Assembly (NCBI GenBank): GCA_035409945.1
Contig: DAONQC010000001.1
Coordinates: forward strand, 87,361-151,360
Direction: 5' to 3'
DNA length: 64,000 nt
DNA from: Clostridia bacterium
GTDB taxonomy: Bacteria > Bacillota > Clostridia > Christensenellales > DTU072
Shown: positions 1,954-38,496 of the stretch, one piece after another
Layout: each line of letters starts with the position of its first letter
How positions within the stretch are numbered: position 1 is the first letter of the stretch
Notes under the pieces: model-generated
Seen by the model: the letters and a program-made list of their open reading frames with translations, nothing else
What the model was told of the DNA's origin: nothing
Database searches by the model: none
Position numbers and translations under genes: made by a program

Positions 1954-4900
1954 TCACTCGGAAACTAAATATGTTGACCATATAGGATGATTAGCATAAT
2001 AAGATATCTTACTATTAGGTAATAATATATTTAGTTTGTTGTAATCATACGTGTCAAGCATGCCTCCATTAAAAATATGATTATACGTTATAACTTCTTT
2101 TTTATTGTCTTTCAAATCGATTGTTAAATTTGTTTCTCCATCCCAGTATAGCGAACTGTTACCTAGCTCTTTAAGATTAGTGAATTTATAAGTATGAACA
2201 TTTGGTGTGTTAAAAAAAGCGTAATTATAAACATGTAGCCCTTGTGGAGAGTCAATATCTGAAAAATTAAACATATACTCTTCTGGGTCGTACCTATCAG
2301 TATATATTTTTTGTAGATTTTGCATTGAACTAAATGCATATTCTCTTATTTCAATTAATTTTCCCCTTCCTAAAAATTTAACTTCACTCAAAAAGCTTGC
2401 ACCATAAAAGGCAAAGTCATTTATTACTGCTACCGATTGAGGAACTATGTAAGTAGGTTTGGTTGCGCCTGCCGGATAGGAAATTAACCTTTTTTTACTT
2501 TTATCGAACAAAACACCATCCTCTTGACTTAGTACAGGATTATCTTTTGCAACAAGATAAAACTTAATATTATTTAGTCCCATTAATGCTGTCGAGTTTA
2601 TACTAGTCACATAACTTAAGTCTATTGACTTAATTTGCAAGTTATACAAAGAATACGGAGCAAGCTCCTTTACATTTGATAAATTAATACCTTTGATTAT
2701 TCTTTGTTTAGCATTAAACGAATTTTTACCTAAATAATCAATTATTCTATATGATTGTCCATTTTCACTAAATTCTTTGGGAACATCTATATACCACTTC
2801 TTTGAAATCCAACAATACACCCCATACGTTCCTGTTGGCCGTTTAAATAGGATGCATTTATTTTCAGTATCTTTAAAAAGTCCATTTCTAAAAACATAAT
2901 AATCTTCACTAGGAACCCCATCTATCGAGACAATAATATAATTATCTATTATCTCTGTTTTAACAAATGTATTAAAATAATAATATTTTACATACTTATC
3001 TAAAATTTGAGCAGCCTTATTTAACATAGTTAATTTATTTAAATTGATGATGTAAAATTTATTCCCCCAATCTGTTTGAGCATATATTACAATTTCCATA
3101 TGCTTAATTAATGAACTGATTTTAATCGTTTCTGAATCTTTAAAATGTTCGTTTAACACTGTATAATTATTCAAACACCTTAAAAAAACACCAAAGTCTG
3201 TATATAATTTTTTCGCACATTCTCTGTATCTATTAATTAAAGAAAAGTTAGAAAACTCCATTGGAATAAACTCTGGGATGATGGTAACATCATATTCTTT
3301 CATTGTAAAAATATCTGATATATTTTCGCCCTCATCTCGCATATTGGATGTTTTATATAATTTTAAACTCTTAAGTTTATATCCTTTATCCGCTAATATA
3401 CTAAGTTCGACCAAAGCTCCAGAACTATATGTATTAGTGTTTTTTATAGTACTAACATTTCCGCCATAACTATTATCAATATCAACTCTATATGAAATAA
3501 CATTTGACGTGTTAACTATTTTATCATAATTGAGATTTATGATAGGAGTATTATCGGGTGTTGTAAATGTATTATTAATAATTCCTGTTAAATTGTAACG
3601 GATTTGTGTAACTGAATATTGATGATTATTTGCCCTACTATTTATAAAAACCGTAACGCTCTCTCCCTCAAAAGTTATTGATTTATCAGGATATATTAAG
3701 AAAAACTCATCTTCACAAGCATTAATAATAACAGTAGGTTTAAATATGACCATAATATTTATATTACTATTTTTCATTAAAAATCCAATCTTAGATTGTG
3801 AAAAATAAGTATCAATATCTGTTTCATTGCTATATGAAACTAGGGTATCTTCTTGTTCTCCGTTTTGCCCGTGTTTGACTACTAAACTGAATAAGCCAAA
3901 ACCTTCAGCAGGATTGATATCTAATTCTACTAATTCGTTAAATTGAGCCAATTCTGAATTAGACTCTATATTACCATTCCCCATTTGTGTAATTGTAATA
4001 TGGTATTCGTTTGTTGAAGTAACATGTTTAGGAATGGCTTTAATTTCTATATCATAACTAGGCATTAAAAACGACCCAGAATAAGAGCTAATTCCATCTA
4101 ATTCAATATTAACTTCTTCATATAAAGTACTATTCAAATTAATATATTTAAACTCAACGCTATTAGGGGCGAGCAAACTAGTATTTTCTAATTCAAGTTT
4201 AATTAATTCACCTTCAGTTGCGAAATCATGTGAAACAATTGGTTTCGGGGAATATGTATCAGATACTTTGATTTTATAAATTTGAGGTGAAAGCGTTATA
4301 GTTAATACAGAATCTTCATTAGGCATAATTAAATTATCTAATGATACAAAATTTCCATTTAAAAGTATATTATTAATTTTAACATTATCTAAATATGAAG
4401 TATCAAGAACAATTTTTTCCCCTTCATAAAAACGGTTTTCTATATTTGTGGTTGTTATTATTTTGTCAGAAGGTGTTCCTGAAGATTCTTTTACTTGTAT
4501 TGTTAAATTATATAATTTTTGTTTATTTATTGGTTGGATTATGGGTTTAATCAAAACAGTATCGTTGGGCATAATAAACCCTTCTATGTCGGTTGTACTC
4601 TGGTTGTTAATCAAAAGCTGCGTACATATAAAGCCCTCATCACATATAATTTCTATCGGAACATACTCTCCAGTACTAGCTTTTGTAACGAAAGTATTTA
4701 TTTTTATATTATTTGTTTCATCTATTGTAACATCGTATTTTACATCACAATTAATTTTTACTACTTCTGCCGCAATAGTAACTGGCTTGGAAGGCATTAG
4801 AAATGAATCTGAAACACTCTCACTTGTTTCTATAATGTAGATTTTATTGATGTAGTAACCTAATGACGGTATAGCGTCTACATAAACTGTATCATCTCTA

Positions 4901-5592
4901 TGAGCTAGTTCTTTACTTACATTAATGATAACATTTTCTTGTTTATAAACATTAACTTTTAACGGAGGCAGTTCAAATATTGCTATAATGGTAATGGGAT
5001 AGGGAGGCATTAAAAACGATTTGGTATCGTCGTTAATAATTATATCATCATTTATACCATCATTTGATTTAGCACATAGCGAACCAGGTTTTAGTATATA
5101 GTCGTGGTCGATGTATGAAATTTCAAGTGTGATTTCTGTACCTTTTGCTGCTGTGATTTTTGTATCTTTTGCTGTTTTATTTAAATTAGTCTTAATTTCT
5201 GCAACATCATAGCTAGCAATAAAAATTTCATGAGGATAAGTATCGACACTCTGCCATTTGGCAAAAATCGTTCTGCTTTCAACAGCTTTGAATAAATCAA
5301 TGTTAAGCTTATCTGCTGAATTAAAGCTTAAATCTAAATACCACCCAACAAAAACATATCCTTCTCTTATAGGTTCATGTTCTGGTAACTCAATTGTATC
5401 ATTTTTATTCAATGTAATACTAACTGCAGAAATATTTCCAGGAAAAACACCACCATTAGCATTAAATGAAATAACTATAGCTTTATTATTTTGTTGAGCA
5501 TTACTGTCACAAGAGCATAATAATGCTCCTGTTAAACATATAACAATAACTAACAATGCAATTACAAAATATTTATTCAATTTTACATACAT
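1954..5592 (-). CDS. Giant secreted or cell-surface protein with an N-terminal signal peptide, Listeria-Bacteroides (Flg_new/InlB-B type) repeats and C-terminal BspA-type leucine-rich repeats
   Basis: 1212 aa. The hydrophobic N-terminus is MYVKLNKYFVIALLVIVICLTGALLCSCDS. One repeat reads FNANGGVF...REGYVFVGWYLD...IFAKW. The C-terminal LRR-like units include NDFAFYGASFLSEVKF and IREYAFSSMQNLQKI. No Shine-Dalgarno sequence precedes the ATG. Confidence 0.75.
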   Translation of the reverse strand: MYVKLNKYFVIALLVIVICLTGALLCSCDSNAQQNNKAIVISFNANGGVFPGNISAVSITLNKNDTIELPEHEPIREGYVFVGWYLDLSFNSADKLNIDLFKAVESRTIFAKWQSVDTYPHEIFIASYDVAEIKTNLNKTAKDTKITAAKGTEITLEISYIDHDYILKPGSLCAKSNDGINDDIIINDDTKSFLMPPYPITIIAIFELPPLKVNVYKQENVIINVSKELAHRDDTVYVDAIPSLGYYINKIYIIETSESVSDSFLMPSKPVTIAAEVVKINCDVKYDVTIDETNNIKINTFVTKASTGEYVPIEIICDEGFICTQLLINNQSTTDIEGFIMPNDTVLIKPIIQPINKQKLYNLTIQVKESSGTPSDKIITTTNIENRFYEGEKIVLDTSYLDNVKINNILLNGNFVSLDNLIMPNEDSVLTITLSPQIYKIKVSDTYSPKPIVSHDFATEGELIKLELENTSLLAPNSVEFKYINLNSTLYEEVNIELDGISSYSGSFLMPSYDIEIKAIPKHVTSTNEYHITITQMGNGNIESNSELAQFNELVELDINPAEGFGLFSLVVKHGQNGEQEDTLVSYSNETDIDTYFSQSKIGFLMKNSNINIMVIFKPTVIINACEDEFFLIYPDKSITFEGESVTVFINSRANNHQYSVTQIRYNLTGIINNTFTTPDNTPIINLNYDKIVNTSNVISYRVDIDNSYGGNVSTIKNTNTYSSGALVELSILADKGYKLKSLKLYKTSNMRDEGENISDIFTMKEYDVTIIPEFIPMEFSNFSLINRYRECAKKLYTDFGVFLRCLNNYTVLNEHFKDSETIKISSLIKHMEIVIYAQTDWGNKFYIINLNKLTMLNKAAQILDKYVKYYYFNTFVKTEIIDNYIIVSIDGVPSEDYYVFRNGLFKDTENKCILFKRPTGTYGVYCWISKKWYIDVPKEFSENGQSYRIIDYLGKNSFNAKQRIIKGINLSNVKELAPYSLYNLQIKSIDLSYVTSINSTALMGLNNIKFYLVAKDNPVLSQEDGVLFDKSKKRLISYPAGATKPTYIVPQSVAVINDFAFYGASFLSEVKFLGRGKLIEIREYAFSSMQNLQKIYTDRYDPEEYMFNFSDIDSPQGLHVYNYAFFNTPNVHTYKFTNLKELGNSSLYWDGETNLTIDLKDNKKEVITYNHIFNGGMLDTYDYNKLNILLPNSKISYYANHPIWSTYLVSE

Positions 5593-12960: not shown

Positions 12961-13045
12961 TGGTGGGCAGGGATGGATTCGAACCATCGAAGTCTCCGAC
13001 GGCAGATTTACAGTCTGCTCCCTTTAACCACTCGGGAACCTACCC
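12961..13045 (-). tRNA. tRNA-Tyr (GTA), class II long variable arm, CCA encoded
   Basis: The reverse complement is GGGTAGGTTCCCGAGTGGTTAAAGGGAGCAGACTGTAAATCTGC...GGTTCGAATCCATCCCTGCCCACCA. I folded the cloverleaf by eye. The anticodon loop is CTGTAAA. Confidence 0.9.
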
Positions 13046-13057
13046 ATATATTTAAAT

Positions 13058-13133
13058 TGGAGCTGGCTATCGGATTTGAACCAACGACCTACTGATTACA
13101 AATCAGTTGCTCTACCAGCTGAGCTAAGCCAGC
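13058..13133 (-). tRNA. tRNA-Thr (TGT)
   Basis: The reverse complement is GCTGGCTTAGCTCAGCTGGTAGAGCAACTGATTTGTAATCAGTAGGTCGTTGGTTCAAATCCGATAGCCAGCTCCA. The anticodon loop is TTTGTAA. Confidence 0.9.
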
Positions 13134-13146
13134 ATACACTTAGACT

Positions 13147-13222
13147 TGGTGCCTTGGGACGGAATTGAACCGCCGACACAGGGATTTTCAGTCCCTTGCT
13201 CTACCGACTGAGCTACCAAGGC
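13147..13222 (-). tRNA. tRNA-Phe (GAA)
   Basis: The reverse complement is GCCTTGGTAGCTCAGTCGGTAGAGCAAGGGACTGAAAATCCCTGTGTCGGCGGTTCAATTCCGTCCCAAGGCACCA. Confidence 0.92.
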
Positions 13223-13228
13223 AAAAAA

Positions 13229-13305
13229 TGGCGATCCGGAAGGGACTCGAACCCTCGACCTCTAGCGTGACAGGCTAGCGTTCTAACCAACTGAACTACC
13301 GGACC
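13229..13305 (-). tRNA. tRNA-Asp (GTC)
   Basis: The reverse complement is GGTCCGGTAGTTCAGTTGGTTAGAACGCTAGCCTGTCACGCTAGAGGTCGAGGGTTCGAGTCCCTTCCGGATCGCCA. Confidence 0.92.
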
Positions 13306-13347
13306 TTAAAGTCATTCATTTTTTACAGCATATACTAATTTAATTGG

Positions 13348-13424
13348 TGGTGGGCCTTCACGGACTCGAACCGCGGACCAGTCGGTTATGAGCCGACCGC
13401 TCTAACCAACTGAGCTAAAGGCCC
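13348..13424 (-). tRNA. tRNA with CAT anticodon (elongator Met or lysidine-type Ile2; not initiator-like)
   Basis: The reverse complement is GGGCCTTTAGCTCAGTTGGTTAGAGCGGTCGGCTCATAACCGACTGGTCCGCGGTTCGAGTCCGTGAAGGCCCACCA. The 1:72 pair is G-C and the anticodon stem lacks the three-G:C stack of initiators. Confidence 0.85.
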
Positions 13425-13442
13425 TCACGCATTTTATGCCTT

Positions 13443-13519
13443 TGGTCGGGATGAAGAGATTTGAACTCCCAGCCTCTTGGTCCCAAACCAAGCGCGCTAC
13501 CAAGTTGCGCCACATCCCG
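13443..13519 (-). tRNA. tRNA-Pro (TGG)
   Basis: The reverse complement is CGGGATGTGGCGCAACTTGGTAGCGCGCTTGGTTTGGGACCAAGAGGCTGGGAGTTCAAATCTCTTCATCCCGACCA. Confidence 0.9.
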
Positions 13520-31631: not shown

Positions 31632-31718
31632 GCGGGCGTGGCGGAATTGGCAGACGCGTTAGATTCAGGTTCTAATGGTTGCAAGGCTGTGCAGGTTCAA
31701 GTCCTGTCGCCCGCACCA
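31632..31718 (+). tRNA. tRNA-Leu (CAG), class II
   Basis: GCGGGCGTGGCGGAATTGGCAGACGCGTTAGATTCAGGTTCTAATGGTTGCAAGGCTGTGCAGGTTCAAGTCCTGTCGCCCGCACCA. The anticodon loop is TTCAGGT. Confidence 0.9.
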
Positions 31719-31759
31719 TGCACAAGAACACATTTCTAGCGTATTAACATTTTATATAT

Positions 31760-31843
31760 GCGGTCGTGGCGGAACTGGCAGACGCGTACGTTTGAGGGGC
31801 GTATGGTTATACCGTATGGGTTCAAGTCCCATCGACCGCACCA
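31760..31843 (+). tRNA. tRNA-Leu (GAG), class II
   Basis: GCGGTCGTGGCGGAACTGGCAGACGCGTACGTTTGAGGGGCGTATGGTTATACCGTATGGGTTCAAGTCCCATCGACCGCACCA. The anticodon loop is TTGAGGG. Confidence 0.88.
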
Positions 31844-31863: not shown

Positions 31864-31889
31864 ATCAGCTTTTTGCTGATATTTTTTTG
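31864..31889 (+). terminator. Terminator hairpin between the convergent tRNA-Leu genes and the PurL-like gene
   Basis: ATCAGC-ttttt-GCTGAT followed by ATTTTTTT. Confidence 0.6.
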
Positions 31890-31895
31890 TCGAAT

Positions 31896-34895
31896 TTATT
31901 TATCAGGACTGAAAAAATATTCTTTGGCATTTTTGAACATGCCATCAAGGAGTTCTGCTGTTCCTCCAGGTATATGGTAAGTTTTTTCAATCGAAGTGAA
32001 AAATCCAAGGACCCTACCATTTGGAGACATAATACTGCTCATTGAAAAAGATGAACCTAGCGAATTATCTAATACTTTTGACGTAATGTCACCATTGTCA
32101 TCAATATATTGAGATGTAATCTGATTATTTTTAATTAATAGTTCACCTAGCTTTTCATCCACTTTAATTTTCATCATGTTTTCTGGAAATGCGGTTTTAT
32201 AAACCGAACCAATTTTGGTTTTAGATAACCATATTGAATCATTAGAAGAAATACGTATTCTTTGTGTCAGTGCTTTAATATTATTAACATTGTTATCTTG
32301 AAATTTAATCGGCGCGTTTTCTGAATTGCCATATGGTAAATACCCCAATTTAAATAGCGCTCTCGTTCCTTCGCCACAGCCCAATATCAACCCTAAATTC
32401 CTAATGGCAACTTCATTTATGGCATCTATGATTTCTGGACGTTTTAGTATAGAATATAACAAGTCTCCAGAAAATTTATTGTTCACAGTATTTTGACCAC
32501 ATAGTACAATAATATTTGCTTTCGAAATATCTATTCTTAAACCGCGAACAAACATATCGTTTATATAAATCGTATCAGTGAAATCACGTAAGTTTACACT
32601 AAAGCCTGCCTTATGGCATATTCCTCTAAATATATCACCAGAAACCTTATCAAAAGTTAAAATTAATACTTCAGGTTTATGCAAATATTTATTGAAAAAC
32701 TGAGTTTGTTCAAGCTTTTGCGTTGTAAATGCTGATGTAACTTTCCCATCCCCCATATCTATATTTTGTTTCTTTACAACATCATAATTTGCATTATACG
32801 GCTGCCCTTTTACATCTCTAAACACACCCGTTGCATCAACAACGCCAACATATAGGCTTTTAAGTGCTCCCATTTCTTTTATGTCAGAAACAGAAATTAA
32901 AAGGCCACCCTTTTCTTCATTGCCATTTAGATATCTATCTTCACTAAACGCGAGAGAAAAACCCAGTCCATTACCAATAATAGATGACATAATTGATTTA
33001 TTAATAGATTTTTCTACCACAATTGCAGATTGTATATTGCCGGACATTATCTGCATATTGATGGCACTAGTTAATTTAAGAAAATATTTTAAATCAGGCA
33101 CACCATAATCATCTTTTTCAATTGGAAAATAGAACAATTTTTGACCAACTTTAAATTGATTTGCAATAGTTGTGCTATTTGAATAACCTATGGCATGAGA
33201 AATAACTTGTAGGCTTTTACAACTATCACTTTTTTTTATGTCTGCTTTAATATTAGGGATAGAAAGGATCATTTGCGAATAAAAAACAGCTAATATGGCC
33301 TCCAATACTTTCCCCATATCATCAATGTTTGTTGGATAATAAAGGGAGATTGTTGTTGCTATGTGATGCGTTGGCACCCCTAATAAAACAAGCTTTAAAA
33401 CCGACATAATCATTGACTCTAGTACTGTTATAAAAATTGTTTTGTTGTTGGACTCGATGGTGGATGAAAAAAACAATTTCAACTTATCAAAACCGCATTC
33501 ATCAAACACAAACATATATGCTTGTGATTTCGTGTTTTGCCTTTCTCCGATAAACTGCGGCAAAGCAGTTTTACCTCCTTTGAATATATCAAATTTCAAA
33601 CAAGCATCGTCGTTGGGTTTGTTGATTTGTGTTTTATTTAGTCTTAATTTTGAGCAAGGTTCAATCATATTATCAAGTTCAATTTTTAGCACAGTTTCAT
33701 TATGGAAGTTCCCCCACAATACCTTATGAGTTAAATTAAAAATTGTTAGAGGACCTTTTAAAATTCTTATTGCCTTACTTTTAGTGATTTTACCTATATC
33801 AAAAATAGAAAAACTTCTTTGTTCACAAAATTCAGTAAAAGCATATTTTTCTTCTGGTTTTACTATTGCAACGATGTATTGATGCGTTGGATTCATAAAG
33901 AAATTTTCAAAACTTTCTGTTTTTAATGGTAGCTTTTCAAATAATATATCAATACCTTTTGCAATTTGAACAAGTGCATTAAACAAACCTGCTTCACATG
34001 TATAAGGTTTGACATTAAAATGATAAAAAGCACCTTCATTCGCAAGACGACAGAAATCTATTCCTTTCAAATGATCCTTTTGATTAGTACACACCAACAA
34101 AATTCTATCTCCATTATTATGTTCAGCTGCTTTTTTCAATCTAAAATGAGAAGTTTTTAACATGGTAACTTCATTAATCCCTTCAAAGCATATGGAATTA
34201 TCATAAAATGGTATTTGTAACATACAGGCAACATTTAAGTCATCTGCAATTTTAGATATGGCTTTGTGTGAAGTCTCGCTGTTGATAGTATTTTCTATTA
34301 TCGCTAGAGGTTCAAAACCATCTAAAGATGATTTATATACGACACTCTCCACAGATGATATAAGCTCATCAAAAGAAGTACTATGGTTAATATTAATAGA
34401 GAGATTATTATTCTCACCATCACCGGTGCCTTTGCAACAAAAAACTACACTATCATCATTTTTGTTGTGGAAGATTGTACCAAGATTTTGGGATGATAAT
34501 TCAGATATTGCTAACTTTAAAAATGATTCTATTGTTTTTTCTCTAGGTTTGTTAAGTTTTAAATTGATTTTATTGTATAGATCAAGGGATTTATTTATAT
34601 GTGGATTTTGGGACAATATTTCAATTTTGTTAATATAAGAATTCAGTATGTATTTATCCGTACGTCTAAATTTGTCAATTGCTATTAATTCTAGTGAAGA
34701 AGGTTCTGTATTTATGCCTCTATAATACTCTTCAATTTCAATTAAGTCATCTTTAGATAATTTTAATTCAAGTTCCAGTATCAACTGTTCTAACTGAGTA
34801 TTCGTGAAAGTTGTAAAGCCATCTATTTTTTTATTAATAGGTTGAAAATCAAAAGATTCTGCCGTTTGTCCTGTTTCTGCGATAAATTTAATCAT
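31896..34895 (-). CDS. FGAM synthase (PurL)-like protein lacking recognisable catalytic residues; probable pseudoenzyme
   Basis: 999 aa with no signal peptide. By eye it is collinear with single-chain PurL from the linker region through the AIRS-like domains to the C-terminal triad-glutaminase domain, but the key motifs are replaced (details in findings). Its ATG overlaps the upstream stop in an ATGA, and it has no SD of its own. Confidence 0.65.
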   Translation of the reverse strand: MIKFIAETGQTAESFDFQPINKKIDGFTTFTNTQLEQLILELELKLSKDDLIEIEEYYRGINTEPSSLELIAIDKFRRTDKYILNSYINKIEILSQNPHINKSLDLYNKINLKLNKPREKTIESFLKLAISELSSQNLGTIFHNKNDDSVVFCCKGTGDGENNNLSININHSTSFDELISSVESVVYKSSLDGFEPLAIIENTINSETSHKAISKIADDLNVACMLQIPFYDNSICFEGINEVTMLKTSHFRLKKAAEHNNGDRILLVCTNQKDHLKGIDFCRLANEGAFYHFNVKPYTCEAGLFNALVQIAKGIDILFEKLPLKTESFENFFMNPTHQYIVAIVKPEEKYAFTEFCEQRSFSIFDIGKITKSKAIRILKGPLTIFNLTHKVLWGNFHNETVLKIELDNMIEPCSKLRLNKTQINKPNDDACLKFDIFKGGKTALPQFIGERQNTKSQAYMFVFDECGFDKLKLFFSSTIESNNKTIFITVLESMIMSVLKLVLLGVPTHHIATTISLYYPTNIDDMGKVLEAILAVFYSQMILSIPNIKADIKKSDSCKSLQVISHAIGYSNSTTIANQFKVGQKLFYFPIEKDDYGVPDLKYFLKLTSAINMQIMSGNIQSAIVVEKSINKSIMSSIIGNGLGFSLAFSEDRYLNGNEEKGGLLISVSDIKEMGALKSLYVGVVDATGVFRDVKGQPYNANYDVVKKQNIDMGDGKVTSAFTTQKLEQTQFFNKYLHKPEVLILTFDKVSGDIFRGICHKAGFSVNLRDFTDTIYINDMFVRGLRIDISKANIIVLCGQNTVNNKFSGDLLYSILKRPEIIDAINEVAIRNLGLILGCGEGTRALFKLGYLPYGNSENAPIKFQDNNVNNIKALTQRIRISSNDSIWLSKTKIGSVYKTAFPENMMKIKVDEKLGELLIKNNQITSQYIDDNGDITSKVLDNSLGSSFSMSSIMSPNGRVLGFFTSIEKTYHIPGGTAELLDGMFKNAKEYFFSPDK

Positions 34896-37800
34896 GTAAT
34901 TTCAATCAATGTATTATTCTCTTCACTGAAAAATGTTGTTACAAACTGATCTTCTCTGTAACTTTCAATATTAGTTACTTCTAGCTTACAAGTAGTTGAG
35001 ATCCCTTTAAACGAATTAACAGAGAAACTTACTTTATGATTTTCTCTTTTGATAGTAATAGTGTTTAAAACATTACAGCCTGAAAAAGCCTCATTCCCAA
35101 TAAGGTCGATTTTACTATCTTTATTAAATGTTATGCTTATTATGTTACTAGGTCTGTCGCTAAAAATTTTTGTTTTAAAAGCTCCATCTGCTATAGCAAT
35201 GATTTCGTCTGGAATAGAAACCTCATTAGACTCACTTTTCTCGTAGTTATACGTTAAGAGCACTTGTCCTAATTTGATAAACTCTTCGTTGGATTGTGTC
35301 ATATACCAGGGGTTGTCTTCGTTTAACACACATTCCCCCAATGTTTTGAGATTAGAATTTTCTCCTATTGAGACGGTACTTAATTTATAACAACCTTTGA
35401 AAGCAAAGCTTTCAATTGCAGTAACTTCATTTGGTATATTGAAGGACAACAGATTTTCACAACCTGAAAATGCCATCCTACCTATTCTGGATAAGTTAGA
35501 ACCATTAAAATTGTCATCTAAATCAAGGAAACTAATATGTTTTATGTTCTTACAATTAGCAAAGGCACCAGGTATAATTTCTTGAGTATTAGATGAAATT
35601 TCATATGTATTATTAGCATAAGTTTTTTGAGCGGGAACTAAATAGATTTTGGTATTATCAGTAGATACAATGGAATCTTGAGCATCTAAAACAAAACAAT
35701 CATTACCATCAAAGCTAATTGTTTCTAAAAGACTACAACCTAAGAAAGCCAAGTCTCCTATATGAATTATTGAACTAGGGATTGAAATTTTATTAAATTT
35801 AACTCCATGATCATAGGAAGCAAAAGCTCCTGACGCAATTGAAACAACAGGTTTCCCATTGTGTTTTGCAGGGATAACCATTTCTCCTATTTCAACATTT
35901 TTAATCGCAGGATTGTAATTAACAAGTTTATATGATGTTTGTTCAGCCGAATAATATTCAAATTCTAAACCTTCTGTTCCTGCTAATAAGTCAGTCCAAT
36001 AAGCATAAAAACTCGTTTCGCCTTTAATTGTTACTTCTGAATTGCTTTCTATCATTTCTGAAGTGTAATTACTATCTGTAAAACACCCCATGTATTGGAA
36101 ATTGCTTTCCCTTCCATCATCAGGATATTTAGGAACTTCTGTAAAATATGTACTTGGGTTTATAGGCGAACCATGTTCGACTATCATTTCTTTTTGTGTA
36201 TAATTTTTTATAATCTCATAATTGGGCTCGCTCCCAGTTATTTTCCACGTATATAAACTAACATTATATTCATTAATTTTGAGTAACGGTGTAAAAGATC
36301 TATCTAAGAAAGGCTCTGCATTAAATTGTCTAAAATCCTTAATTTCAATTTGATTAGACTCGCTAAAATAATACTCTTCCGAAGGATGAACTGTCCCTAT
36401 ATAATTCCAGTACGCAATATTTTCAGCGGACGGAACTATTCCTAATGTAGAATTTTGTTCACATTGATAAAAACCTTCATTATAACGTACTAATTCATTT
36501 TTTTGATATTCTGTATCTGCGCTATAATCCACACAGTTCTTTTTATGTCTCCATCCAATAATTGTATAACCTTCTATGTTATAACTAGGAGGCGTAGTTA
36601 GAGAATTAGGTCTAACTGTTTGTCTTATTGCGTTGTATTCTCCATACTCTGAAGGAATCACAAAATCAACAATATAGTCTCTATATTCCCACACAGCCCT
36701 AAGAATCCGTTCATCTGCAATATGAGAAACTCTAAATGGGAATGTTATATCCTTCCTATTAACTTGCCACTTCACATTAATATATTTAACATCGAAACCA
36801 TCATACTCTTGTTCGCCAATAGTCAAATTTTGATATAAGTTAATCATGTCCGTCTGTATAAGCTCAGTCCCAAATTCATATTCACGAGTTATAGTGAGGG
36901 CATCACTATAATCGCTATCATGCCTAAACATCTCAAATTTAAACTGCACTGGATATTTATTAGCATCATATATCGCATAAACATTCGTATTACCTTTGAT
37001 GTAAAAGTCTGATATGTCAACTTTCTGCTTATTGCCACTTTCAAGTATAGACCAAAAACCAGTGTGTCCATCTTTGTTTGGTGGTTCTGGTGGATTTTGC
37101 AATATACTATTATAGTCAACTCCTGTTCTTCTTAAATCTAAGATTTCATTTTCATCTTCGTCTAAAAATCTTACTTGATATTTTAACTTAGTATATCTAG
37201 CTACTATGTTGTAATCTCTGAAAACACCTGTTTTAAAATCGTGAATAACCGTGTTGTTGTTATCATAATCTACCCATTCAACACTATGCCCATCAACCTG
37301 CACTGCTGATAAAGGAGAAAAGTGCGTATCGAATGATTCGCCATATCTTACGTTTTCTATTATAGGCGTAAAAGTAGATCCGTCTAGCGGAGATATAGCA
37401 CTGTATTTAACTGTAAAAGTTTTTGTCCTATATTCTAAAAGAATTCGAAAATTTGCTATTACTTCAACCGTAGTGTCTTGATCATCAACATATGTGTATT
37501 CTTGATAGGACTCAGGTACATTGTCTACAATTTTTTGTACACTGTATTTTACAAAATCACTACTAGGAAACCTATCAGGGATTCTCAGTGTGATTATAGA
37601 ACCGTGTTTGAATGTTTGTTTATTAACCCCAGGAATATCTTGTATTGCACCATCTATACTAATCTTATATTCAACTGACCAATTATCAGGCGATTCCCAT
37701 TTAGCATACAGGGTAATATCTTTGGTAACTATTTTGCCAGTAACATATTTTGTCTCAATTCTATCAATATCTTCAAACCAGCCTGCAAATATATACCCTT

Positions 37801-38269
37801 CTCTTTTGGGTACAACTATGGCATCCATTTCGCTCAATGACTTAGTTATTACTTTACTATTCACATCGGATCCGAAATATCCTTCACTAGCATTAAATGT
37901 AACATTAAATTCTGATATGATTGGTTTCGGTTTAACAGTGACTGTTACAAAGGTTCTTTCCCCCTTGTATAAAATTTCAAGCGTTTTCGTGCCAACAGTA
38001 TTTAATTTATCACGTTCTGCATCATCTTTGAGTATTTCAGGCGTCAATCTAATTTGTTCTAACAAATTATCTCCTGAAAAAACGTTGAGAGTATAATCTC
38101 TCCATTCGACCGCATCTGTATCACTTTTAAAAAAAATAATATCCTCAGAGGAAGTAACCGTAATATTATTACCTGATTGCACTACTTCATCTGGTTTGCA
38201 TCCAATTAATGTAAACACTAAAATAGCAATCGCTATGGTTATTAGAAAAATTATTAGTTTTTTGATCAT
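34892..38269 (-). CDS. Giant surface lipoprotein with Listeria-Bacteroides (Flg_new) repeats and BspA-type leucine-rich repeats
   Basis: 1125 aa. The signal peptide plus lipobox is MIKKLIIFLITIAIAILVFTLIGC. Repeats include FNASEGYF...REGYIFAGWFED...LYAKW, GHTGFWS and GYTIIGWRH. C-terminal LRR units include IASGAFAS, IGDLAFLGCSLLETISF, IGRMAFSGCENLLSFNIP, IESFAFKGCYKLSTVSI and IGNEAFSGCNVLNTITI. Confidence 0.8.
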   Translation of the reverse strand: MIKKLIIFLITIAIAILVFTLIGCKPDEVVQSGNNITVTSSEDIIFFKSDTDAVEWRDYTLNVFSGDNLLEQIRLTPEILKDDAERDKLNTVGTKTLEILYKGERTFVTVTVKPKPIISEFNVTFNASEGYFGSDVNSKVITKSLSEMDAIVVPKREGYIFAGWFEDIDRIETKYVTGKIVTKDITLYAKWESPDNWSVEYKISIDGAIQDIPGVNKQTFKHGSIITLRIPDRFPSSDFVKYSVQKIVDNVPESYQEYTYVDDQDTTVEVIANFRILLEYRTKTFTVKYSAISPLDGSTFTPIIENVRYGESFDTHFSPLSAVQVDGHSVEWVDYDNNNTVIHDFKTGVFRDYNIVARYTKLKYQVRFLDEDENEILDLRRTGVDYNSILQNPPEPPNKDGHTGFWSILESGNKQKVDISDFYIKGNTNVYAIYDANKYPVQFKFEMFRHDSDYSDALTITREYEFGTELIQTDMINLYQNLTIGEQEYDGFDVKYINVKWQVNRKDITFPFRVSHIADERILRAVWEYRDYIVDFVIPSEYGEYNAIRQTVRPNSLTTPPSYNIEGYTIIGWRHKKNCVDYSADTEYQKNELVRYNEGFYQCEQNSTLGIVPSAENIAYWNYIGTVHPSEEYYFSESNQIEIKDFRQFNAEPFLDRSFTPLLKINEYNVSLYTWKITGSEPNYEIIKNYTQKEMIVEHGSPINPSTYFTEVPKYPDDGRESNFQYMGCFTDSNYTSEMIESNSEVTIKGETSFYAYWTDLLAGTEGLEFEYYSAEQTSYKLVNYNPAIKNVEIGEMVIPAKHNGKPVVSIASGAFASYDHGVKFNKISIPSSIIHIGDLAFLGCSLLETISFDGNDCFVLDAQDSIVSTDNTKIYLVPAQKTYANNTYEISSNTQEIIPGAFANCKNIKHISFLDLDDNFNGSNLSRIGRMAFSGCENLLSFNIPNEVTAIESFAFKGCYKLSTVSIGENSNLKTLGECVLNEDNPWYMTQSNEEFIKLGQVLLTYNYEKSESNEVSIPDEIIAIADGAFKTKIFSDRPSNIISITFNKDSKIDLIGNEAFSGCNVLNTITIKRENHKVSFSVNSFKGISTTCKLEVTNIESYREDQFVTTFFSEENNTLIEIT

Positions 38270-38277
38270 AATAGTTT

Positions 38278-38312
38278 TAAGATTACATACATCATTATAA
38301 GATTACATACAT
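38278..38312 (-). repeat. Two copies of a 15-bp direct repeat (period 20 bp) in the 5' leader of the lipoprotein gene
   Basis: On the plus strand, TAAGATTACATACAT occurs at 38278-38292 and 38298-38312. On the minus strand the unit is ATGTATGTAATCTTA. Confidence 0.8.
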
Positions 38313-38330
38313 AATTATTTACATATTAAT

Positions 38331-38470: not shown

Positions 38471-38496
38471 AAAAACGGCTATTTCCCAATAGCCGT
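38471..38496 (-). terminator. Rho-independent terminator after pnp
   Basis: The minus strand reads ACGGCTAT-tgggaa-ATAGCCGT followed by TTTTTAAT. Confidence 0.7.

Follow-up and report, generated by a model that had tools for sequence, protein, structure and literature searches.

A PurL-derived pseudoenzyme of Clostridia and its predicted operon with a leucine-rich repeat lipoprotein

We describe a gene located at positions 31896 to 34895, on the minus strand, of a 64,000-nucleotide stretch of a Clostridia bacterium contig (DAONQC010000001.1), hereafter referred to as the window. Its product, of 999 amino acids (aa) including the start, descends from clostridial-type single-chain formylglycinamidine ribonucleotide (FGAM) synthase, PurL, and is called pseudo-PurL here. 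The elements on which PurL chemistry depends were found to be deleted or replaced, the gene is under purifying selection, and a gene for a leucine-rich repeat (LRR) lipoprotein lies directly upstream. Pseudo-PurL may be a non-catalytic partner of this lipoprotein.

A preliminary description of this DNA, made by eye, had proposed descent from PurL and collinearity with the clostridial enzyme from the linker onward, and both proposals were borne out by profile searches. The best NCBIfam model was TIGR01857 (clostridial single-chain FGAM synthase), whose positions 508-1214 matched aa 303-971 with 143.3 bits and an E-value of 6e-42, a score that does not reach the equivalog cut-off of 1057 bits. 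A profile-profile comparison by hhalign, in which 18 family members were set against 18 canonical PurLs of about 1240 aa each, gave a probability of 100 and an E-value of 3e-167, and was collinear throughout, with query residues 1-995 aligned to PurL residues 122-1247. Local hhalign matches were obtained for the linker (aa 21-134 with PurL 161-279; E 2e-19), for B1 (aa 302-408 with PurL 504-613; E 2e-12), for A2/B2 (aa 433-715 with PurL 655-950; E 1e-33) and for the glutamine amidotransferase (GATase) domain (aa 737-995 with PurL 981-1247; E 5e-52). The one-time catalytic A1 subdomain (aa 136-300) was barely recognisable (E 2e-4). In Pfam, GATase_5 (PF13507) matched aa 741-974 with an E-value of 4e-21 and 75.6 bits, above the gathering threshold of 27 bits; we take this match to indicate membership of the fold family, not to prove activity. 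AIRS_C reached an E-value of only 0.1, below threshold. Searches of PDB sequences, made with the protein and with a three-sequence profile, returned chance matches only. The gene and its regions are as follows, FGAR standing for formylglycinamide ribonucleotide.

31896..34895, minus strand: PurL-derived pseudoenzyme gene, with its stop codon at 31896-31898 (assigned from TIGR01857, hhalign, and AlphaFold with Foldseek)
34521..34838, minus strand: linker-like FGAR-AT region, aa 20-125 (hhalign 2e-19; weak PF18072 match, E 0.08; HCRH replaced by RRTD-K)
33621..34520, minus strand: remnant of the A1/B1 catalytic half, aa 126-425, approximate limits (ETHNHP, GGxIRD, C-loop and DxGAGG lost)
32706..33620, minus strand: A2/B2 half, aa 426-730, approximate limits (GKDS lost; contains the conserved aa 576-650)
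31974..32675, minus strand: class I glutamine-amidotransferase-like domain without nucleophile, aa 741-974 (Pfam GATase_5)
32361..32381, minus strand: GCGEGTR, aa 839-845, the one-time nucleophile elbow (from the alignments; family consensus GxGEGxR)
31983..31997, minus strand: TSIEK, aa 967-971, the one-time G-H-x-E-R (His replaced by Ser, Glu kept, Arg replaced by Lys)

The fold was then modelled with AlphaFold. A confident model (predicted local distance difference test score, pLDDT, of 81.6; predicted template modelling score, pTM, of 0.86) required a family alignment of 27 sequences, as compared with a pLDDT of 29.5 when an alignment of only three sequences was used. The top Foldseek matches of the model in the PDB were the large PurL (lgPurL) of Salmonella (1t3t) and human PFAS (9n9w), with an E-value of about 1e-44, a template modelling score of 0.70 taken over the whole query, and 12% identity; small PurL, HypE, ThiL and PurM came next. 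The model is thus consistent with a retained PurL fold comprising a linker, a pseudo-dimeric PurM-like core and a GATase-like domain. Overall fold and domain arrangement resemble those of large PurL and PFAS, from which pseudo-PurL differs in lacking the adaptor N-terminal domain and the catalytic loop. The clostridial enzyme described by TIGR01857, in which linker, A1/B1, A2/B2 and GATase follow one another in the same order, is the direct source; unlike it, pseudo-PurL lies outside a pur context and has lost about 140 aa of the N-terminal domain, the C-loop, the HCRH, ETHNHP, DxGAGG and GKDS motifs, and two members of the glutaminase triad, Cys and His.

These losses were scored from computed alignments, namely a profile column table and an independent MAFFT alignment with E. 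coli PurL, whose residue numbers are used below and are the same as in the Salmonella structures. Canonical PurLs share 147 invariant columns, 80 of which lie in the A1/B1 half; pseudo-PurL retains seven of these 80. The preliminary description had noted the loss of HCRH and of ETHNHP, and both losses were recovered in the alignment with the E. coli enzyme, in which pseudo-PurL lacks the HC of the HCRH/EHCRH motif, including H216, and offers no equivalent of ETHNHP (H296). Other residues stand in place of DxGAGG and GKDS. The FGAR- and ATP-site motifs (H216, H296, GGxIRD, DxGAGG and GKDS) are deleted or replaced not only in pseudo-PurL but also in all 18 aligned relatives. The HD.SDGG motif had been placed on SSIIGNGLGF; its computed match is AIVVE-KS, about 12 residues away, so this placement was not upheld.

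Whole blocks are also missing, corresponding to E. coli residues 1-116 (most of the N-terminal domain), 314-353 (with GGxIRD), 449-473 (the C-loop) and 489-500. At the C-loop, residues 449-473 of the E. coli enzyme and residues 450-474 of P0023 both face a gap. Altogether, some 140 N-terminal residues are absent, together with about 100 residues of internal deletions. The PurS-like adaptor domain at the N-terminus was not found, the alignment beginning at canonical residue 140-160 or so; its absence had been noted beforehand. The catalytic C-loop of PurL (residues 447-468 in the Salmonella and E. coli enzymes) caps the FGAR site, with residues 449-455 binding FGAR, and its D464/L465 switch and the N-terminal domain, including the contacts between loop and domain, are needed for glutaminase as well as synthetase activity (PMC7124931).

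In the glutaminase domain, the nucleophile elbow G-I-C-N-G-F-Q became GCGEGTR, with a glycine at the position of C1135; this position is Gly or Ala in 18 of the 18 relatives. H1260 is replaced by a serine, and the triad His is lost in most relatives, while SHGEG became PENMM. The triad glutamate (E1262) is kept, as E970 in pseudo-PurL and as Glu in 16 of the 18 relatives. The earlier statement that the elbow context, the His and the Glu of the Cys-His-Glu triad had all gone was therefore right for the elbow with its Cys and for the His, but not for the Glu. Judging from the alignments and the model, pseudo-PurL is predicted to be unable to make FGAM, or to hydrolyse glutamine in the manner of PurL, because the N-terminal domain, the C-loop, the ATP and FGAR motifs, and the glutaminase Cys and His are all lost. 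Since whole catalytic elements are deleted, the assignment as a dead enzyme depends little on whether a canonical purL and a complete pur pathway are also present in the genome.

Pseudo-PurL belongs to a family. A word-indexed homologue search returned three close relatives only (100, 66 and 48% identity), as compared with 480 hits from an exhaustive HMMER search. About 30 clusters at 50% identity matched the profile of the family better than that of canonical PurL; their members have intact frames of about 900-1015 aa and lack every catalytic motif, and conservation extends over the full length down to 20% identity. The dN/dS ratio of pseudo-PurL ranged from 0.09 to 0.25, which is an upper bound because dS was saturated, and the gene evolves somewhat more slowly than the neighbouring LRR gene. 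It is thus under purifying selection, and is therefore a pseudoenzyme and not a pseudogene, the fold being kept and the gene maintained after loss of the catalytic residues.

The best-conserved stretches of the family are aa 576-650 (RDEYGxPDFKYxLKL...GNGLGFSFA), aa 826-850 (the elbow, GxGEGxR) and aa 951-975. The one-time nucleophile elbow is the single most conserved of all, and conservation is lowest in the A1 remnant. As had been noted for pseudo-PurL, no signal peptide was found, nor any transmembrane (TM) segment, in any family member. A hydrophobic peak at aa 487-505 was considered as a possible TM segment and rejected, as in the model it is a helix buried in the core of the PurM fold. 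In a crude neighbour-joining (NJ) tree, in which long-branch attraction is possible, the family grouped with other degenerate clostridial-type sequences.

The survey of gene neighbours that the preliminary description had recommended revealed a constant partner upstream, which that description had missed. The following features delimit the predicted operon.

34892..38269, minus strand: partner lipoprotein gene, 1125 aa (lipobox LIGC, Flg_new (Listeria-Bacteroides) repeat and BspA-type LRR_5 repeats, by Pfam)
34892..34895, minus strand: ATGA stop/start overlap of the lipoprotein and pseudo-PurL genes (from the sequence)
38475..38496, minus strand: terminator-like hairpin after pnp, bounding the two-gene operon upstream
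31632..31843, plus strand: two convergent tRNA-Leu genes (CAG, GAG), the downstream limit, together with a hairpin at 31864-31880

From this arrangement, the pseudo-PurL gene is predicted to come second in an operon of two genes, in which it is translationally coupled to the lipoprotein gene. The lipoprotein matches LRR cell surface proteins in the PDB (4gt6 and 4fs7) and, with its LRR_5 and Flg_new repeats, resembles BspA-type LRR and Listeria-Bacteroides-repeat surface proteins. No BspA-type protein is known to us to depend on a cytoplasmic pseudoenzyme as an obligate partner, nor was one found in the literature searched.

A search for related loci with a seq­uence alignment of seven members yielded seven genome loci and one JGI metagenome locus. 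Overall, in a group of uncultured Clostridia, an orthologue of the LRR lipoprotein lies directly upstream in 12 of the 12 lineages for which upstream DNA was available (the window with L001; L002/L005/L012; L003; L006; L007; L008; L010; L011; L013; L014/15; L016; and L022/23). Loci with this partner span 20-66% identity to the query and 31-51% GC, with several unrelated flanks. The junction consists of an ATGA or TAATG overlap or of 1-17 nucleotides across lineages; it is an ATGA or of 1-3 nucleotides in L002, L003, L006-L008, L010, L011, L013 and L016. The lipobox is kept in the seven orthologues that were checked and in L016, and the lipoprotein open reading frame (ORF) of L014, as called, begins without an obvious signal peptide. 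In L021 (P0037), which sits just outside the LRR-partnered group in the NJ tree, two giant Flg_new/LRR_5 genes are present upstream at about 270 nucleotides, not directly adjoining.

Two further observations concern the lipoprotein gene itself. A 20-nucleotide unit, CATACATAATTATAAGATTA, is repeated 2.7 times at 38267-38318, directly upstream of the lipoprotein start codon and reaching it; the repeat could be a regulatory element or prone to slippage. In L023 (4461-7991), the LRR gene was called as two ORFs of 134 and 1029 aa, versus a single ORF of 1182 aa in L022 (4443-7991). These contigs are near-identical, and the split could reflect a frameshift, phase variation or an assembly error.

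A third gene, encoding a protein of 168-178 aa with three TM helices, recurs in most related lineages. It lies directly downstream of the pseudo-PurL gene in L006 (10889-11401), L007 (13042-13551), L009 (2607-3116), L011 (9512-10021), L017 (11015-11551), L021 (11330-11848) and L022/23 (11062-11568 in L022), and 2 kb downstream in L010 (15270-15779). In L017, it adjoins the pseudo-PurL gene though the LRR gene is absent. Loop 1 of the protein is strongly basic, and its C-terminal domain, VLDSGxxVPYRFIxW...GFDT, is conserved and probably cytoplasmic according to the positive-inside rule, read by hand. Pfam gave no family for it, even at an E-value of 10. Synteny with the window is seen at the L022 locus (P0011, 24% identity), where the order is rSAM (radical S-adenosylmethionine protein), rpsO, pnp, LRR gene, dead PurL gene, 3-TM gene, a gene of 395 aa, clpB, hpf, AP endonuclease and pgi; the window lineage therefore lost the 3-TM gene from this site. 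The two tRNA-Leu genes occupy the site where relatives have the 3-TM gene, the 395-aa gene and clpB. The 395-aa neighbour in L022 also had no Pfam family, even at an E-value of 10, and is lineage-specific.

In a sub-clade of higher GC, the module is followed by genes for glycoside hydrolases (GH), namely a GH2 beta-mannosidase-like protein, a GH29 alpha-fucosidase or a GH38 alpha-mannosidase, and for a sugar transporter of the major facilitator superfamily (L006, 11462-16326; L007, 13573-17691; L010, 16487-18997; L011, 10046-14125). Judged by sequence, this set looks like one for N-glycan breakdown.

On balance, we favour the reading that pseudo-PurL is a non-catalytic partner of the LRR lipoprotein module, to which we would give somewhat better than an even chance; any specific step within the module is much less probable. 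Pseudo-PurL would then be a cytoplasmic, membrane-proximal subunit of an envelope module, made in step with the lipoprotein by termination-reinitiation at the ATGA junction. The lipoprotein mRNA would be held at the membrane by its secreted product, and is probably located there because the upstream product is exported, so that the dead PurL might be synthesised at the same place; where a 3-TM protein exists, pseudo-PurL might dock on it. Its job would lie in the biogenesis of the lipoprotein, by holding or targeting a precursor of about 1100-1700 aa before Sec export, or in the function of the lipoprotein, and not in purine synthesis. Holding or targeting the precursor, or supporting the lipoprotein in another way, seems to be the most economical reading. 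The GxGEGxR pocket with E970/K971 and aa 576-650 of B2 are the likeliest candidates for interaction or ligand sites, since conservation within the family is highest there.

A functional analogy, put forward as a hypothesis only, is offered by Asp1-3 of the accessory Sec system, enzyme-like non-catalytic cytoplasmic proteins that are encoded beside a surface adhesin of very large size, whose export requires them. The likeness is limited to a non-catalytic enzyme-like protein encoded beside a large surface protein; Asp1-3 have no relation to pseudo-PurL in sequence or fold, and no SecA2/SecY2 is present here.

Several observations weigh against this partnership. It is suggested by gene context, and operon partners share their history, so that co-conservation is no proof of a complex. 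A 1:1 complex of the mature proteins would be topologically awkward, because the lipoprotein is extracellular and pseudo-PurL has no export signal; only a role before export, or one mediated through the membrane, would therefore be left. The 3-TM gene has no copy in the 64-kb window, as determined by a hidden Markov model search, and is also absent from L002/5, L014 and L016. No LRR neighbour is present for P0029, whose gene has valS upstream although it is accompanied by the 3-TM gene, or for P0067, whose gene follows mfd. Pseudo-PurL may, moreover, have a new catalytic or ligand-binding activity.

This last point leads to other explanations. A neo-enzyme, in which the remodelled glutaminase pocket (GxGEGxR, E970/K971) or the acidic B2 residues D595, D601, D671 and D687 would form a new active site, possibly for a reaction tied to the lipoprotein or to glycan use, is unlikely in our opinion. 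The exceptional conservation of the elbow, where the new charged residues E842 and R845 are fixed, would fit such a site, as would the GH2, GH29 and GH38 glycosidases downstream in distant loci. However, the elbow is without a nucleophile in all 18 relatives, the conserved positions are mostly glycines and hydrophobic residues, as is typical of fold maintenance, and the glycosidase neighbours are confined to one sub-clade and absent from the window locus. We consider it no less doubtful that pseudo-PurL is a regulator or partner of real purine or glutamine metabolism, binding PurL or sensing FGAR, ATP or glutamine, with an incidental, positional linkage to the LRR gene. There is precedent for this in the viral glutamine amidotransferase (vGAT) pseudoenzymes, which act via cellular PFAS (PMC7605207), and pseudo-PurL has indeed kept the fold of PurL, its domain interfaces and the Glu of the triad; intermediate-like full-length PurLs also exist in which an intact synthetase is combined with a dead GATase bearing the same GEG replacement. 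Sensing at the old substrate sites is nevertheless improbable, because pseudo-PurL has lost the N-terminal domain and the C-loop together with all nucleotide and FGAR motifs. In addition, neither pur genes (purS included), among the proteins of the window, nor a purine riboswitch, in an Rfam scan of the window, were found, and the stop/start coupling with the lipoprotein gene persists in lineages whose flanks differ greatly.

The two remaining explanations are far less probable. A decaying relic without function would account for the eroded catalytic motifs and the poorly conserved A1 remnant, but hardly for an intact frame in some 30 clusters, a dN/dS ratio of 0.09-0.25 in a protein that evolves more slowly than its LRR partner, or a confidently predicted fold, and we regard it as very improbable. 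Least probable of all is the reading given by public annotation, an FGAM synthase or PurQ that has diverged but is still active. GATase_5 does score above the Pfam threshold, and both NCBI and JGI name the protein PurQ or an FGAM-synthase-like amidotransferase; against this stand the 143 bits obtained where the equivalog requires 1057, and the absence of the C-loop, the N-terminal domain, H216, H296 and the catalytic Cys and His, elements which experiments showed to be required (PMC7124931).

Among known proteins, analogues of pseudo-PurL are the viral FGARAT (vFGARAT) or vGAT proteins of gammaherpesviruses (ORF75, BNRF1, ORF3), which the preliminary description had cited as the FGARAT-derived pseudoenzymes known to it. 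In agreement, these tegument proteins were the only matches of the model in a viral structure library (E 1e-34 to 1e-26; template modelling scores of 0.5-0.6), and they matched less well than PurL. They derive from FGAM synthase, lack the catalytic triad as pseudo-PurL does, serve a non-metabolic use and are thought to have been captured from the PFAS of an animal host (PMC7605207). The viral proteins are full-length (about 1300 aa), whereas pseudo-PurL has 999 aa; they are virion proteins acting on nuclear and innate-immune targets of the host, whereas pseudo-PurL is encoded on a bacterial chromosome, among housekeeping genes, and coupled to a surface lipoprotein. No relatives of pseudo-PurL were found in viral contigs. 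The family appears to have arisen independently of the vFGARATs, since it scores best on the bacterial clostridial model and groups with degenerate clostridial-type sequences in the NJ tree. Pseudo-PurL thus joins the FGARAT-derived pseudoenzymes as a separately evolved case, distinct in its architecture and in having a new, conserved partner.

A full-text literature search for a bacterial PurL or FGAM-synthase pseudoenzyme returned a viral review only, in line with the earlier remark that no described bacterial counterpart was known; in the literature searched, no reuse of PurL as a non-enzyme was found except for the herpesvirus tegument proteins. That this is the first bacterial family of FGAM-synthase pseudoenzymes, independent of vFGARATs and acting as the cytoplasmic part of an unrecognised envelope module of LRR lipoprotein, dead PurL and 3-TM protein, is a tentative proposal, to which we would give slightly less than an even chance. 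If it is true, a whole metabolic scaffold of 1000 aa has been reused for the biogenesis or signalling of an adhesin-like surface protein. PurL is among the largest and most conserved enzymes of core metabolism. A fold of 1000 aa has been kept here over divergence worth hundreds of millions of years (20% identity) with every catalytic element deleted, and the scaffold itself therefore has a selectable function. The coupling to the LRR lipoprotein provides a concrete and testable handle on this function. The case is also relevant to the way in which Clostridia of the gut and of digesters assemble their BspA-like surface proteins of very large size. Systematic mis-annotation as PurQ or FGAM synthase would, moreover, inflate predicted purine prototrophy in metabolic reconstructions based on metagenome-assembled genomes (MAGs).

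Other PurL-like proteins with partial losses were observed in the course of the homologue search. Fourteen full-length clostridial-type PurLs (P0019, P0038, P0042, P0049, P0050, P0051, P0059, P0065, P0070, P0083, P0099, P0126, P0137 and P0151) have all synthetase motifs and have lost the glutaminase Cys (GIGNGFQ, GISNGFQ, GINNGFQ, GIDDGF and others). In two of them, P0065 and P0126, the elbow reads G[IL]GEGFKAL, with the GEG replacement that also marks the dead family; from their sequences, these two may be intermediates or ammonia-dependent enzymes. Conversely, P0079, P0087 and P0096 kept the Cys-His-Glu triad and lost the synthetase motifs; the P0087 gene adjoins one for an FTCD_C cyclodeaminase. 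Full-length PurL-like proteins (about 1140-1290 aa) degraded in both halves were represented by P0022, P0028, P0032, P0043, P0072, P0074, P0088, P0091, P0103, P0110, P0134 and P0141; the loci L018/L019 and L024 go with these two sets of proteins. The locus of P0110, which is full-length and degenerate, comprises Rrf2, the PurL-like gene, a phosphomutase and a short-chain dehydrogenase/reductase. Such a graded series of paralogues (dead glutaminase, dead synthetase, both dead) could document the decay of a multidomain enzyme into a pseudoenzyme.

The pseudo-PurL region is ordinary chromosome, with about 32% GC across the whole window and the standard bacterial code. Upstream of the gene pair are rSAM, rpsO and pnp, and on the downstream side, the two tRNA-Leu genes, hpf, an AP endonuclease gene, pgi, ruvCAB, queA, tgt, yajC, and the SCIFF peptide with its maturase, SCIFF being indicative of Clostridia. 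The identical protein in NCBI is HQC54210.1, titled 'MAG TPA: ... PurQ [Clostridia bacterium]'. Defence-system models (PADLOC) did not match pseudo-PurL, the LRR protein or the small TM protein, and the Rfam scan of the window gave nothing except tRNAs. An ORF of 1212 aa at 1954-5592, considered with its neighbours as a genuine purL operon, was rejected, since it corresponds to a repeat surface protein beside housekeeping genes. This protein, encoded on the minus strand, is a second very large Listeria-Bacteroides-repeat protein, presumably surface-located, without a dead-PurL partner. Finally, six tRNA genes (Tyr, Thr, Phe, Asp, Met and Pro) lie clustered at 12961-13519 on the minus strand.

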